From a virus (lineage: Duplodnaviria; Caudoviricetes): a stretch of DNA of 33,342 bases. The stretch covers positions 1 to 33,342 of the IMG/VR virus record IMGVR_UViG_3300044676_005230; one strand, 5' to 3'. This document shows positions 4,951-12,782 of the stretch, piece after piece; within the stretch, counting starts at the first letter, position 1, and each line of letters opens with the position of its first letter. The position numbers were made by a program, and so were the translations under genes. The notes below the pieces were generated by a model. It did not search any database. It was not told the origin of the DNA and saw only the letters and a program-made list of their open reading frames with translations.

Positions 4951-5282
4951 GCGCTCGCCTCCGCTAGCTCAACCCTGCAACCCATTGGAGCCTTGCCCCA
5001 TTGCAGAGTGATTTTTTGGATAAAAGAGTCGTCTTGAATCACACCCATCTTTACGAGAATGTCAGAGACCGCTTTTTCTAAGTTGCCTAAATCACGCTTG
5101 CGCTTGTCAGGTCGTGCGAATGTGTAAACGACGGTTACGTGACCATCTAACATCGGCGCTCGGCACAATGCCTGAGTCGCCCTTGACTTCCATTCCTTGT
5201 ACTTAGGTGAGGTATAGCGGCGTGACTTGCCAGAATATAACGCGTTGACACTTGGTGGATATGGGAGGTCTAGGCTAATCAT
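4947..5282 (-). CDS. rusA: RusA-family Holliday junction resolvase
   Basis: LPYPPSVN, PDKRKRDLGNLEKAVSD and IQDDS motifs. ATG at 5282 overlaps the upstream stop. Confidence 0.9.
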   Translation of the reverse strand: MISLDLPYPPSVNALYSGKSRRYTSPKYKEWKSRATQALCRAPMLDGHVTVVYTFARPDKRKRDLGNLEKAVSDILVKMGVIQDDSFIQKITLQWGKAPMGCRVELAEASA

Positions 5283-5740
5283 TTTTTTGCAGCAGACGTT
5301 AATTGTCGATTGCAATAATCGCGAATAGCTAAAGCCACTCTACCAACACTGCTTGCTTTCTGACTGATTTCTCGTAATTCGCTTGCAGTAAATTCTGAAT
5401 GCGTCATCGCCGCGTCTATCGACGTTGATACCTGCCCAACTTCGACGTATAGACGCCGCAGTTGCGCGCCAATCTCAAGAGCTTCAACGCGCTGATTTTT
5501 CAGCGCTTTATCAAACGCCTGTTCAAAAACCTCTTTGAAAACTGCGCCTTTGCCACGCGCAACCAGTTGAGCGTCTAACCGCGCGCCTAACTCTAAATCT
5601 AAATTCAAACGTTTGCGGTAGTCTGCCAACTTGTACAGAGCGTCAGCGTTAGTTTGACAATTTGCCAATTCGTTATCTGACAACTCTCTGACCGCAATAA
5701 TCAGTGCATTTCTGCGAGGCGTTTCCACTGCGGCTGTCAA
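5279..5740 (-). CDS. Hypothetical protein in the CII position
   Basis: 153 aa ORF directly after cro. Start uncertain (TTG). Confidence 0.55.
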   Translation of the reverse strand: MTAAVETPRRNALIIAVRELSDNELANCQTNADALYKLADYRKRLNLDLELGARLDAQLVARGKGAVFKEVFEQAFDKALKNQRVEALEIGAQLRRLYVEVGQVSTSIDAAMTHSEFTASELREISQKASSVGRVALAIRDYCNRQLTSAAKK

Positions 5741-5768: not shown

Positions 5769-5999
5769 TCATAAAGTCGTGTGCCACTTGGTCAATGTCT
5801 TCTCATCTAAAGGCACGTCACGTTGATTTGCCAAACTCAAAAGTCCAAGCCAGTACGCGACAGGCGCGCGACCGCGATTTTTCCACTGCCGCACACGCCA
5901 ATGTTTGTCAGGAAAACCGAGGCCAGCAGCGATCTCCATCGCACCGCCAAGCGCCTCAATCAGTTGCGGAATGTTGTCAGGTGTATTCTTCATGCTCAA
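5769..5999 (-). CDS. cro: Cro-like HTH regulator
   Basis: LIEALGG...IAAGLG...VRQWKNRGRAP motif. Divergent from cI. Start may be the ATG at 5993. Confidence 0.8.
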   Translation of the reverse strand: MSMKNTPDNIPQLIEALGGAMEIAAGLGFPDKHWRVRQWKNRGRAPVAYWLGLLSLANQRDVPLDEKTLTKWHTTL

Positions 6000-6058
6000 A
6001 TATGTACCAAAATGTACAATTCAACGCAAGCCCAAATGTACAACGCCGTGTTGTACAA
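6000..6058. promoter_or_regulatory. OR-like operators and cro promoter
   Basis: ATATGTACCAAAATGTACAA (6000-6019) plus TGTACA sites at 6037 and 6052. Minus-strand TTGCGT-17-TACATA. Confidence 0.75.
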
Positions 6059-6065
6059 ATAAAAA

Positions 6066-6731
6066 ATGGTAGAATTCCGAGAACGCGGTGACCGATTGCG
6101 CTGGGCGCGGGAGCAGGCTGGCTACGAAAATGCGCTTGATTTTGTTCGAGCGCATGACATCTCGCAATCTGCGTACTATCATCATGAATCGAACAGGCGC
6201 GGTTTTTCGTCAGCAGTCGCTGAAAGATATGCGCGTTTGTTGAGAATTGACTATACTTGGTTGCAAACAGGGAAAGGCTCACCGACAAAATCGGCAACAA
6301 ACAGTATTATTGGATTTGTCGGAACAAACGCTGAAGTTGAATTATTTGATGACGAAAATGCTCGGGTTTTTACTGACTACAAAAATTGGTGCATTAAAAC
6401 TGAATCGAGAGAAAACTTAGAAGCGGCGCCCTCGACGCCGGAAGGATCTGCCTTGGCAGAAGTCATAAAAGTTAAAGGGAATTCCAATTACCCGGCTTAT
6501 CAAAACGGCGACTTAATTTATCTGGCAGATAAGACAGCTAAGACAGACGATATGGTTGGGATGGTTGGGCGAGAATGTATAATTCAGCTTGCCGACGGTA
6601 GAAAATTGTTAAGAACCTTGTCGCGCGGATCGCGTAAAGGCGTTTTTACCCTTTTGTCGTACAATTCGCCACCGATTCACGACGTTAAAGTTGCTTGGGT
6701 TGCACCAATCAATTGGATTAAGCGATCATAA
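6066..6731 (+). CDS. cI: CI-like repressor (XRE HTH + degenerate S24 peptidase domain)
   Basis: RLRWAREQAG...YYHHESNRR...WLQTGKG HTH. C-terminal VKGNSNYP...GRECIIQLADGR S24 fold. Confidence 0.9.
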   Translation: MVEFRERGDRLRWAREQAGYENALDFVRAHDISQSAYYHHESNRRGFSSAVAERYARLLRIDYTWLQTGKGSPTKSATNSIIGFVGTNAEVELFDDENARVFTDYKNWCIKTESRENLEAAPSTPEGSALAEVIKVKGNSNYPAYQNGDLIYLADKTAKTDDMVGMVGRECIIQLADGRKLLRTLSRGSRKGVFTLLSYNSPPIHDVKVAWVAPINWIKRS

Positions 6732-6820: not shown

Positions 6821-6876
6821 ATATGTGCCACTTTGTACAATATTGCTTGATTGCTGTTGTACATTTTGGTACATAT
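6821..6876. promoter_or_regulatory. OL-like operators and plus-strand early promoter
   Basis: 6857-6876 is the exact reverse complement of 6000-6019. Variant ATATGTGCCACTTTGTACAA at 6821-6840. TTGATT-17-TACATA promoter. Confidence 0.8.
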
Positions 6877-6901
6877 GTCTCCGTCAAAAGGGAGACAGAC
6901 C

Positions 6902-7243
6902 ATGAATTATCAACCATTTGCGGCAAATCACCCGCTTTCACCTGAAAATCAGTACGCCGAGGATTCAGAAACTATTTTTGAGTTTCAGAGGGTCTGCACC
7001 CGCGCAATTAACTCAATGCGCGCAAGTGCAGAGACGTTAGAAAACCTCAACACAATCGACGGCAAAAAGAAAGCGCAAGCGGCGCGCGACCTGATTGAAG
7101 ATCTGCAATTGCAATTATTTGATGAGGGTCTTTGCTCAGACGAACAGGGCAACGCGTCAGTTTTGCCGCTACCAGATTACGTAGATTTTTTAATTGATGC
7201 TGGTCGGCACCCAAGGTTTTTGTGCGGGGAGTCAGAATTATGA
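6902..7243 (+). CDS. Hypothetical early protein
   Basis: GGGAG RBS before ATG 6902. First gene after the OL promoter. Confidence 0.7.
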   Translation: MNYQPFAANHPLSPENQYAEDSETIFEFQRVCTRAINSMRASAETLENLNTIDGKKKAQAARDLIEDLQLQLFDEGLCSDEQGNASVLPLPDYVDFLIDAGRHPRFLCGESEL

Positions 7244-9447: not shown

Positions 9448-9842
9448 GCAAACTAGCACACAGCAACGATGAAACAATGGCGCTGATTGATATGCAAAGA
9501 GCGGTTGAAGATGGTGAAGTGGAGTATCTAATGAGTAACCCCTACACCCCAGACACACTTGCAAAGCGGTGGAATTGTTCATCAGGCAAGGTACGGCGGC
9601 TCTGCCGCACGGGCGCACTGGATCATTTCAAGTTAGGACCAAAGCTGATCAGAATAACCGCAAAAGCGGTGCAGGATTATGAGAGGGGCGTATGCGACTC
9701 AGACTTATCAAAGGATGGTGGTACGTCGTCTTCAGAGACGGGCGCGGTAAACCAAAACGAGTTAGCCTCAGAACCCAAAACAAGGATGAGGCTGACAGGC
9801 AACTCGCAAATTTCCAGCGAGGGCCGAGTGGTGAGACTGTAA
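9444..9842 (+). CDS. xis: Excisionase (HTH_17/MerR-like)
   Basis: PYTPDTLAKRWNCS...VRRLCRTGAL..FKLGPKLIRI. AGGAG RBS before GTG 9444 (alternative ATG at 9531). Overlaps the int start. Confidence 0.75.
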   Translation: MSKLAHSNDETMALIDMQRAVEDGEVEYLMSNPYTPDTLAKRWNCSSGKVRRLCRTGALDHFKLGPKLIRITAKAVQDYERGVCDSDLSKDGGTSSSETGAVNQNELASEPKTRMRLTGNSQISSEGRVVRL

Positions 9843-10654
9843 AAGAGATATTCGCAGTGTATCAGGCTGACAAGGCCAACTCAGGCGCATCTGAACGCAT
9901 AGAGATGGCATGGAAAGCTCTTGCCCCACACTTTGGCCAATACCGCCCCGATCAAGTAGACCGCGCCCGGTGTCGCGCCTACACAGAGCGCAGAATTACA
10001 CAGGGCAAGCGACCCGGCACGATCCGCAAGGAGTTAGGCACCCTCCGCGCCGCGCTTCGCTACAACAACAAAAACACGCCGGCAATTATTGAGATGCCAG
10101 AGGACTCGAAACCCCGTGAGGTATGGCTAACCAAACCAGAGTTTAACAAGCTCCATGAGGCGGTGAAGTCCACCCACGTCAAACTGTTCCTGACGCTTGC
10201 GCGACACACGGCGGCCCGTAAAGAAGCTATCCTTAGTCTTGAGTGGGATCAGATCGACATAAACCCAGAGAACCCGCAAATCAATTTCGGTGCCAATGTC
10301 GGCAACAAGGGGCGGGCAATAGTCCCAATCAACGGAACGCTCATGATTGCCCTAGAGGAAGCCCGCAAAGGGCGCACAACAGACTATGTGATCGAATATG
10401 GTGGAGACCGCGTTAAGTCAATCCGCAAGGGTTTTGATACCGCCAAGGTCAAGGCTGGGCTACCGCACATCACCCCGCATGATGTCCGCCGGTCAGCCGC
10501 GCGTTGGATGGTTGAGCGAGGCGTTTCTATGGAGGAGGTCAGCCAATACCTGGGCCATTCGACAACAGAGGTCACCCGCAGAGTGTATGCACGCTTTAGC
10601 CCCGGCTACCTCGCGAAAGCCGCAGAAGCCCTAGAAGATGATGACGAAGACTGA
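9692..10654 (+). CDS. int: Tyrosine integrase
   Basis: Catalytic residues: AARKEA (R), K, HDVRR (H-x-x-R), YLGH, VYA (Y). N-terminal beta-sheet arm-binding-like segment. Confidence 0.95.
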   Translation: MRLRLIKGWWYVVFRDGRGKPKRVSLRTQNKDEADRQLANFQRGPSGETVKEIFAVYQADKANSGASERIEMAWKALAPHFGQYRPDQVDRARCRAYTERRITQGKRPGTIRKELGTLRAALRYNNKNTPAIIEMPEDSKPREVWLTKPEFNKLHEAVKSTHVKLFLTLARHTAARKEAILSLEWDQIDINPENPQINFGANVGNKGRAIVPINGTLMIALEEARKGRTTDYVIEYGGDRVKSIRKGFDTAKVKAGLPHITPHDVRRSAARWMVERGVSMEEVSQYLGHSTTEVTRRVYARFSPGYLAKAAEALEDDDED

Positions 10655-10655
10655 G

Positions 10656-10681
10656 AGGCAGTGCTCTTTAACCCAATCTGC
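10656..10681 (+). repeat. 26-bp direct repeat, copy 1 (attP arm)
   Basis: AGGCAGTGCTCTTTAACCCAATCTGC, identical at 10842-10867. Confidence 0.9.
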
Positions 10682-10692
10682 CCCAATAGCGT

Positions 10693-10707
10693 GAACGCAA
10701 ATGGAAC
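10693..10707. promoter_or_regulatory. Alphaproteobacterial LexA box (GAAC-N7-GAAC)
   Basis: GAAC GCAAATG GAAC(A), in intergenic attP DNA. Could instead be Xis repeats. Confidence 0.55.
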
Positions 10708-10768
10708 AAAGAAGCAAAAACAGCATAATTGATGGTGAAAAACTCGCAGCACCTAATAGGTCCGGTGT

Positions 10769-10814
10769 CTTCGGGAGGCAGGGGCCGGAAGTTCGAATCT
10801 TCTCACTCCGACCA
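10769..10814 (+). mobile_element. attP core = 3' half of tRNA-Pro(CGG)
   Basis: CTTCGGGAGGCAGGGGCCGGAAGTTCGAATCTTCTCACTCCGACCA: anticodon loop with CGG, T-arm GTTCGAATC, acceptor 3' strand + CCA. No 5' half. Adjacent to int. Confidence 0.9.
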
Positions 10815-10841
10815 GTAAAACCGCCATTTTTAAGGGGTTAC

Positions 10842-10867
10842 AGGCAGTGCTCTTTAACCCAATCTGC
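10842..10867 (+). repeat. 26-bp direct repeat, copy 2 (attP arm)
   Basis: Identical to 10656-10681. Confidence 0.9.
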
Positions 10868-10995
10868 TTTAATAACAATCCGACCTTCTGCCGCAGCGAT
10901 AACCTTCCAGCCCCTGATTGACCACACGAGTCCTGATGAGTCTAGACGCCTTACGTTCGGACTTTTCAGCCACCCGGTCTGTGTCACTGACAACA

Positions 10996-11059
10996 GTGCC
11001 AATAGGTGACAACAGGACTTTGGAATCCTCTGCCAAAGGCTCTTGGCACCTATTGGCAC
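10996..11059. repeat. Long imperfect hairpin/inverted repeat
   Basis: GTGCCAATAGGTG (10996-11008) pairs with CACCTATTGGCAC (11047-11059). Inner CTTTGG/CCAAAG stem. Confidence 0.75.
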
Positions 11060-11150
11060 AAATGACATTGGCATGATTGGACCCAAACTTATCCAAGAAC
11101 TTCGCACCCCCCCCCCCAGTAACGACCCCTGGTGGCAGTTAGAATCACCC

Positions 11151-11610: not shown

Positions 11611-11937
11611 TCACCCGAACCTGTGCTTCTGCGACTTAGGGGGGCTTTTCTTAGAACCTTTTTTACCAGACCAAAATACTTTATCTGCCCAATAAGCAGC
11701 ACTGGTCTTGCCCTTGGCAATATTCTTTCCGTGCCTTGCTTTGAAAGACTTACGGGCCTCCGGGCTATAGTTATGCCCCATCCCCTGGGCTCCGAACCGT
11801 ATGACCTTTATGTCTCCATCGTCTCGTACAGCAACCACAGCCTTCTTAGTTTTATGACCAGGAGTTCTTTTAGGTTTGTTCAACCCCTTTAAGCCAAACC
11901 TGTTAAGTTTCTTCCTCTCGGTTTCTGATAAACTCAT
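11611..11937 (-). CDS. Highly basic phage protein (IRFG..G / RKSFKARH / SAAYW family)
   Basis: Lys/Arg-rich 108 aa. Motifs recalled from marine phage and large-virus hypothetical families. Confidence 0.75.
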   Translation of the reverse strand: MSLSETERKKLNRFGLKGLNKPKRTPGHKTKKAVVAVRDDGDIKVIRFGAQGMGHNYSPEARKSFKARHGKNIAKGKTSAAYWADKVFWSGKKGSKKSPPKSQKHRFG

Positions 11938-12179
11938 GCCTTTCTGTAGCTCCTCGTTTTCGCGGCAATCTTTTTAGGTTGCTTGCTAAATTGCTTGCCC
12001 TTCTTTGTGTCTGCTCGTTTCTTTCGAGTGGTCGCCGCATACTCTTTATCGGGCATGGCTTTTATGGCTTTTTCAGGTAAATACCTTTCTCCGGTCTTAC
12101 CAGAGGGTTTACCCGATTTGGTACGCCAATTTTGCTTAGTCCATTTACTTAGACTTTTTTGTGACTCTTTTTTTGTCAC
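11934..12179 (-). CDS. Highly basic protein, DUF5872-like C-terminal half
   Basis: SQKSLSKWTKQNWRT...GERYLPEKA...KGKQF motif. Confidence 0.75.
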   Translation of the reverse strand: MTKKESQKSLSKWTKQNWRTKSGKPSGKTGERYLPEKAIKAMPDKEYAATTRKKRADTKKGKQFSKQPKKIAAKTRSYRKA

Positions 12180-12354
12180 TTAGCCTCTCCTTTATTTTCG
12201 ACTGCACAGATTTAGGCAGTTCTTCCTTATGGAAGAGCCTCTTACTCTTATCTGTGTGCTTCGCCCCAGAGTGAAGTTGCCCATTAGCCATCTTGTGCAA
12301 ACCTCCTCTATGAAGAGTGCCATCCCTGAAGTAGTGCGGTACACCTTTAGCCAC
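12145..12354 (-). CDS. Basic His-rich small protein
   Basis: From GTG 12354: MAKGVPHYFRDGTLHRGGLHKMANGQLHSGAKHT... Confidence 0.7.
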   Translation of the reverse strand: MAKGVPHYFRDGTLHRGGLHKMANGQLHSGAKHTDKSKRLFHKEELPKSVQSKIKERLSDKKRVTKKSK

Positions 12355-12541
12355 GATACCCACCCCCTGCTTTCTTGTAACTAGACGCAAGCAGCTGTGC
12401 CTTCCTAGCAGACCATTGCCCTGCCTTACCGCCCTTGGTTCCCGCTTTAATTTTACTGAACAGTCTCTTACGCATCGCAGGTTTGGTGTAGTTACCCGCT
12501 TGGTTTACCTTGCTTTTAGTTTTCTTTTTAACAGCCATCAC
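12347..12541 (-). CDS. Highly basic protein, DUF5872-like N-terminal half
   Basis: NYTKPAMRKRLF...GGKAGQWSARKAQLLA..YKKAGGGY motif. Confidence 0.78.
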   Translation of the reverse strand: MMAVKKKTKSKVNQAGNYTKPAMRKRLFSKIKAGTKGGKAGQWSARKAQLLASSYKKAGGGYRG

Positions 12542-12633
12542 TTCCCGCCTTTCGAGGAGAAGCCAAAATACGCTCCCACCACCCCAGACATCGCAAGGTA
12601 CTGTGTCATAATAATAGACTCAGCCTCGGCCAT
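12538..12633 (-). pseudogene. Possible 5'-truncated membrane (holin-like) gene remnant, 31 aa
   Basis: MAEAESIIMTQYLAMSGVVGAYFGFSSKGGK. A single TM with a holin-like GAYFG + basic tail. Confidence 0.4.
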
Positions 12634-12635
12634 CC

Positions 12636-12782
12636 TTATTGCAACAGCCAAGTTGCGACACCTTGCACGATGCCGGCCACTAAAATTGCTGTAGCAAACC
12701 CAACGAACAATTGCTTCTGCCAAGGCAGATCAAAAAACTGTTCAACTAATGCGTCTACATATTGTGAGAATGTTTGTTTCAT
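12636..12782 (-). CDS. Small single-TM protein (48 aa, not in ORF track)
   Basis: MKQTFSQYVDALVEQFFDLPWQKQLFVGFATAILVAGIVQGVATWLLQ. ATGA overlap with the upstream holin stop. Confidence 0.65.
   Translation of the reverse strand: MKQTFSQYVDALVEQFFDLPWQKQLFVGFATAILVAGIVQGVATWLLQ

Follow-up and report, generated by a model that had tools for sequence, protein, structure and literature searches.

The repressor gene at 6066..6731 (plus strand) of the window, by which we mean the whole 33,342-nucleotide stretch of phage DNA analyzed here, encodes a 221-residue cI-like protein with an XRE helix-turn-helix and a catalytically degenerate S24-fold C-terminal domain. Judging from the residues that this protein has lost, we predict with high confidence that it does not cleave itself, and RecA-stimulated self-cleavage has very likely been lost, as the initial annotation of this DNA had proposed. 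CI matches phrog_4 (E 2.9e-15) in a PHROG scan; a Pfam scan gave no match to PF00717 at E 0.05, and CI by itself, run with phmmer against the PDB, returned chance matches only. The AlphaFold model of CI has a mean pLDDT of 87.5, with residues 100-115 below 50, and a Foldseek search with this model places the CI of phage 186 first (2fjr, E 7.7e-6) and lambda CI next. For the C-terminal domain, the structural Z scores are 9.2 with T. maritima LexA, 8.9 with lambda CI (2ho0) and 8.6 with 186 CI, values that should be read as ties, and the domain is predicted from the model to have a LexA/lambda-type fold.

The register of the active site was set with a profile of 29 family C-terminal domains, which aligns to E. 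coli LexA with an E value of 0.0016. LexA A84-G85 falls on the Ala-Gly of the family, S119 on the family Ser and K156 on the family Lys column, and these LexA residues are given as the scissile bond and the Ser-Lys dyad in PMC9926225. In CI, T87-N88 (6324..6329, plus strand; T87 at 6324-6326 and N88 at 6327-6329) aligns to A84-G85, S140 (6483..6485, plus strand) aligns to S119, and R183 (6612..6614, plus strand) aligns to K156. Of the features of a RecA-cleavable repressor, then, CI has the helix-turn-helix, the S24 fold and the Ser, and lacks the Lys and the Ala-Gly or Cys-Gly bond. The claim that the scissile Ala-Gly and the catalytic Lys are both lost is borne out by the T-N and R that the profile alignment puts at these columns, and the translation and the LexA alignment place T87-N88, S140, K180 and R183 where they had been said to lie, with S140 coming 53 residues after T87. 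The K156R change alone is described as leaving LexA uncleavable (PMC5760743). K180 (codon 6603-6605), which the initial annotation had considered as a possible occupant of the catalytic position, falls on LexA V153, three columns off the Lys column, and Lys is found there in only 11 of 149 homologues among the best 150 of 2939 matches; we reject it as a plausible substitute base.

Close relatives of the window CI have broken active sites as well. A sister phage (L004) encodes a repressor, P0002, that is 86% identical to CI, with P-N at the cleavage site, Ala at the Ser column, Arg at the K180 position and the Lys kept. Two marine runs, which may be a single data set, each contain one contig with Phe at codon 140. 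Among close kin, the nucleophile column is therefore Ser, Ala or Phe, Ala-Gly occurs in none, and the P1' Gly is gone from both CI and P0002. Because the dyad is broken differently in the window, the sister phage and the marine variant, it appears that catalysis is no longer selected in this lineage, and as far as the sequences go the close kin show relaxed selection on the CI active site. The helix-turn-helix codons differ from those of the sister phage by 14 synonymous and 2 replacement changes, a pattern that indicates purifying selection on this domain, and since the helix-turn-helix is conserved, cI is not a repressor gene in decay.

That a dead CI is exceptional is not supported by the wider family: about one-fifth of the nearest homologues share the loss, in repeated independent events. 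A representative search gave 2939 matches, of which the best 150 were used, and counts on 149 exclude P0002. Ser or Lys is missing in 31 of the 149 nearest other homologues among these best 150 of 2939 matches, a share that the CI query itself may bias toward dead proteins, and both residues are kept in 118; Lys has become Arg in 19 of the 149. Within the same best 150 of 2939, Ser has been lost from 20 of 24 homologues without the Lys versus 7 of 125 that keep it, and the P1' Gly from 20 of 31 dyad-dead versus 2 of 118 dyad-intact homologues. On a tree of all 151 rows (the window plus the best 150 of 2939) with the catalytic columns removed, the dead state takes 13 changes, at least 4 of them forced by well-supported branches, and a single origin is rejected (p-AU 0.0013; quick tree, LG+G4); from these sequences the dyad appears to have been lost in several independent events.

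An independent set of 59 IMG/VR loci was fetched by a C-terminal pattern that includes no catalytic column. Ser or Lys is missing in 30 of the 59 (21 of 46 after merging at 90%), many of these loci being distant (20-35% identity). By eye, the 15 dead-CI loci with ORFs listed are mostly in a repressor-like position, divergent from replication genes. One large viral CI group (L093-L119) has a fully eroded active-site region, with the Ser motif replaced and mostly Ala, Gly or Cys in the Lys column. Four dead-dyad members (L042, L051, L026 and L045) lie among host genes, with no phage neighbors recognized in the stretch fetched, which suggests that they are domesticated regulators. A literature search that covered few subscription papers turned up no paper on the loss of the dyad from phage repressors of alphaproteobacteria, and the portions available of PMC8053113, PMC8565304 and bioRxiv 10.64898/2026.07.02.736140 contain no like case. 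With non-cleavable repressors already known and the loss frequent, the single case is ordinary and the survey is the more useful result. About one-fifth of the CI family and nearly half of the sampled related viral CIs are not expected to respond to RecA, and a recognized antirepressor family was found in none of the dead-CI phages tested. If this is so, mitomycin assays would overlook many such lysogens.

The window is near-certainly a complete phage genome. The opening 179 bases are repeated at the far end (175 identical), an overlap that bears out the apparent completeness noted at first annotation, though CheckV describes the record as linear and 87% complete. Genes for terminase, portal, major head protein and endolysin are present, along with a replication arm and an arm carrying ERF, SSB, NinB and integrase. 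Pfam and PHROG scans identify the tyrosine integrase at 9692..10654 (plus strand), and an intact attP follows at 10656..10866 (plus strand), in which a tRNA-Pro(CGG) 3' core at 10770-10814 lies between 25-nt direct repeats (at 10656 and 10842). As the core is flanked on either side by phage DNA and a 25-nt repeat, the window is the excised attP form of the phage and not a prophage; the earlier description as a prophage is corrected by this intact attP and by the 179-nt terminal overlap. The 45-nt core is found exactly at 18 genomic loci, with a tRNA-Pro(CGG) called by ARAGORN at 17 of them, and Alphaproteobacteria are named for 15 of the 18 (9 Rhodospirillales, 3 Parvularculaceae and 3 unspecified). 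The host is likely a marine alphaproteobacterium. Sequencing runs with window DNA are estuary or marine where labeled, and the attP-form contig is present at a depth of 474-621 in one estuary run, which may be the source. No lysogen of the window phage was seen, and neither CI nor the integrase, each used as a single-protein query, gave a match among viral contigs. An Rfam scan of the window gave no match at E 1, and a generic promoter and terminator scan of it stayed at chance level.

Several other parts of this genome deserve a brief description. L004 lacks about 230 nt that lie between attP and the late genes (10870-11110), and run X8 skips part of them; no ORF family or Rfam match was found there. 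The lysis region contains a group of small and highly basic ORFs (11614-12723), with matches to PHROGs 7595, 14910 and 17747 (unknown function), which L004 lacks at the corresponding place. We guess that two genes after the early leftward operon (117-1900), of which one has an MptE-like domain (PF01973), may alter surface structures of the virion or the host. A Rhodospirillaceae genome (JAVKEJ010000036.1, at about 120-170 kb; loci L009 and L011) contains an element of about 47 kb that is bounded by the same tRNA-Pro core. Its integrase is related (33% identity), and the window CI as query gave no CI match in it.

The immunity region has a lambdoid arrangement: there is a divergent cro-like gene, operator repeats flank cI, and an integrase and attP are present. 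One putative operator, TGTAC-N6-GTACA, lies between cro and cI (6003..6018) and two more (6824-6839 and 6858-6873, together spanning 6824..6873) lie before the rightward early operon. No window sites other than those at 6003, 6824 and 6858, which flank cI, fit this pattern with one mismatch or none, a count that is no independent test because the pattern was read off those sites. Two of the three operator-like sites (6003 and 6858) are identical in the sister phage. The divergent Cro-like helix-turn-helix gene (5769..5999, minus strand) is YdaS-like at E 0.019 and matches phrog_8008 at E 6e-5, and the gene in the cII position (5279..5740, minus strand) offers a weak CII-like lead, with scores of 0.84-0.86 and one cluster that is 30% PF06892. 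We infer that CI binds the operator repeats and oligomerizes. The two phages have different genes at the start of the rightward early operon (6851-7243 in the window, 3174-4020 in L004) but share repressor specificity and most operators.

How such a lysogen would leave the prophage state is a matter for more tentative proposals. CI would be the lysogeny repressor of a temperate phage, no longer self-cleaving, whose protease-fold domain has likely been kept only to dimerize and to link operators. A small, non-proteolytic antirepressor of no known family would likely switch it off, and this antirepressor could be encoded by the phage, or the host or a different prophage could provide it in trans. 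The non-cleavable repressors that have been studied (186, Gifsy and N15) are inactivated by small antirepressors, and we hold this reading with somewhat less than even confidence. The initial annotation had recognized no Ant, BRO or Rha antirepressor, and our searches agree: Pfam and PHROG scans of the window ORFs found no antirepressor family, BRO included (Tum being covered only so far as PHROGs and Pfam hold it), and six-frame searches of the window genome found no ANT, Rha, AntA or M78. ANT, Rha and AntA are likewise absent from all 17 other dead-CI records searched in six frames, in which M78 gave one sub-threshold match, and Bro-N was found in 0 of 48 related records. The absence of ANT, AntA, Rha and Bro-N says little, however, because nearly all of the relatives with an intact dyad also lack them; only 1 of 19 intact-CI records passed the cut-off for ANT, Rha and AntA. 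Two of the small ORFs put forward earlier as candidates fared poorly. ORF 10701 is rejected and is unlikely to be a gene, since it runs across the att core and the sister phage has not preserved it. ORF 6902 has no family match and no usable Atlas match, and different ORFs stand in its place in the sister phage.

We also considered a circuit in which a LexA-controlled gene acts on the repressor. The alphaproteobacterial LexA box is given as GTTC-N7-GTTC in PMC3323433. Two boxes in the window are perfect; the attP arm contains one of them and a tail gene the other. The 19 window matches with at most one mismatch are no excess over the 26.6 expected. No box was found before a credible small gene in the window among perfect or near matches, a search that degenerate boxes could escape. 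Because perfect boxes are not enriched in dead-CI phages (6 of 23 records versus 13 of 25 with an intact CI), a LexA-controlled circuit of the 186/Gifsy kind is without support here. The box in the attP arm is a GAAC-N7-GAAC match at 10693-10707. In the window, the sister phage and a few related att arms (L132, the same as L011, with two in tandem; L137; and L120), perfect GAAC-N7-GAAC/GTTC-N7-GTTC boxes follow the integrase stop at a distance of 33-52 nt. A perfect box within 120 nt after the integrase stop is seen at 3 of 41 loci, the window included, versus 6 of 1027 control windows (L120 is a fourth case only if the first stop is used), and other spacer lengths there give 0-2 of the 41. 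These boxes may reflect LexA control of att recombination or may be GAAC-rich integrase arm sites, and we regard them as a weak lead.

A second reading, to which we assign a lesser but still appreciable probability, is that there is no dedicated inducer. The lysogen would ignore DNA damage and escape only by way of chance falls in CI and the Cro/CI balance, with the phage spreading mainly by lytic growth. In its favor, no antirepressor family or LexA-box signal was found in the window, the dyad is easily lost (the 13 changes on the 151-row tree, from the best 150 of 2939 matches), and the contig is in attP form, at a depth of 474-621 in the estuary run that may be its source. A tyrosine integrase is found in 6 of 17 dead-CI versus 15 of 19 intact-CI records, many of the dead-CI records being fragments, and half (3 of 6) of the near-complete dead-CI records (at least 89% completeness) have none, so some dead-CI phages may need no induction at all. 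Against this, the integrase, attP and operators of the window phage are intact and conserved in the sister phage, and small antirepressors are described as usually escaping family searches (PMC10432266).

It is rather unlikely, in our estimation, that a host protease or a small-molecule signal acts directly on CI, with an inserted loop as the cut or binding site. The insertion itself, which the initial annotation had pointed out, is real: the distance from cleavage site to Ser is 30-40 residues in 145 of the 151 aligned rows (window plus best 150 of 2939) and 52-70 in the other six, and CI on this basis carries about 15 extra residues, in a segment at about residues 97-117 (6354..6416, plus strand). 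The insertion is an exposed loop, of low confidence in the full model and in a domain-only model, and it differs from that of the sister phage by 3 replacement and 0 synonymous codon changes. In two marine runs, contigs depart from the window sequence at 6352, and another contig rejoins it at 6435; these contigs, perhaps not one molecule, point to a second insertion type, giving at least two sequence types in close kin between matching flanks. Dead repressors also have long linkers slightly more often than intact ones (3 of 31 versus 1 of 118, p 0.03, best 150 of 2939). The counts are small, however, and fit a loop that simply tolerates change. No insertion is present in 28 of the 31 dead homologues among the best 150 of 2939, the four other long linkers are unlike in sequence, and one of them (P0023) belongs to a repressor that keeps Ala-Gly, Ser and Lys. 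The window genome has no PF06114 match, that is, no ImmA/IrrE-type protease. On these data the insertion fits a tolerant loop and a variable binding site equally well.

That CI is still cut, slowly or in trans, at a new bond by S140 with R183 or K180 or by the dyad of another protein, is very improbable: S140 is kept, K180 is nearby in sequence, and PMC9926225 describes RecA contacts that tolerate divergent cleavage-site regions and UmuD cleaved in trans, but K180 has the misplaced and rarely conserved position noted above (11 of 149, best 150 of 2939), in the sister phage this position is Arg and the Ser column Ala, neither phage retains the Gly, and K156R LexA is reported as uncleavable (PMC5760743). 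We would also call improbable, though less so, the broader idea that dead-protease CIs form a large, repeatedly evolved class without RecA cleavage or a LexA-controlled antirepressor, and that in this lineage the swappable inserted loop docks an SOS-independent inducer. Being compact, at 33 kb, and having a defined repressor and operators, the window genome suits a simple reporter screen for the missing trigger.

The small-antirepressor reading draws on comparison with known systems. The direct family of the window CI is the alphaproteobacterial XRE-S24 phage repressors (for example, that of Ruegeria phage 45A6; PHROG 4), with 30-40% identity over the whole length, in which it belongs to a recurrent minority without Ser or Lys (31 of 149, best 150 of 2939). 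With lambda CI, P22 C2 and LexA it shares the helix-turn-helix and S24 fold, the retained Ser, the cro-cI layout and operators on both sides; it differs in having no Ala-Gly, no Lys, about 15 added residues and no PF00717 match. Phage 186 is described as induced by LexA-controlled Tum binding to CI (PMC7708051). The C-terminal domain of 186 CI resembles that of the window CI (Z 8.6, rmsd 3.3, 106 aligned; 2fkd), but identity is 15%, the window layout is lambdoid rather than P2-like, and the window yielded neither a gene resembling Tum nor a small gene under LexA control. The CI of phage 186 lacks the catalytic residues of the dyad. The N15 CB and Gifsy GfoR/GtgR repressors are uncleaved proteins on which antirepressors act, and the window CI is predicted to be non-cleavable as well. 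According to PMC10432266, the N15 repressor is non-proteolytic, loci of the N15 type make up 210 of 271 linear plasmid-phage loci, and small antirepressors, often without homologues, inactivate CI without cleavage. Gifsy repressors are likewise described as uncleaved and acted on by antirepressors, also in trans (PMC3121763). At 136 aa they are short, and LexA controls their antirepressors, whereas the window CI is full length and, unlike them, recently derived from cleavable relatives. The window CI shares with the antirepressor-induced class a repressor without autocleavage residues, and our verdict is that it works like a non-cleavable repressor of the 186/N15 type.
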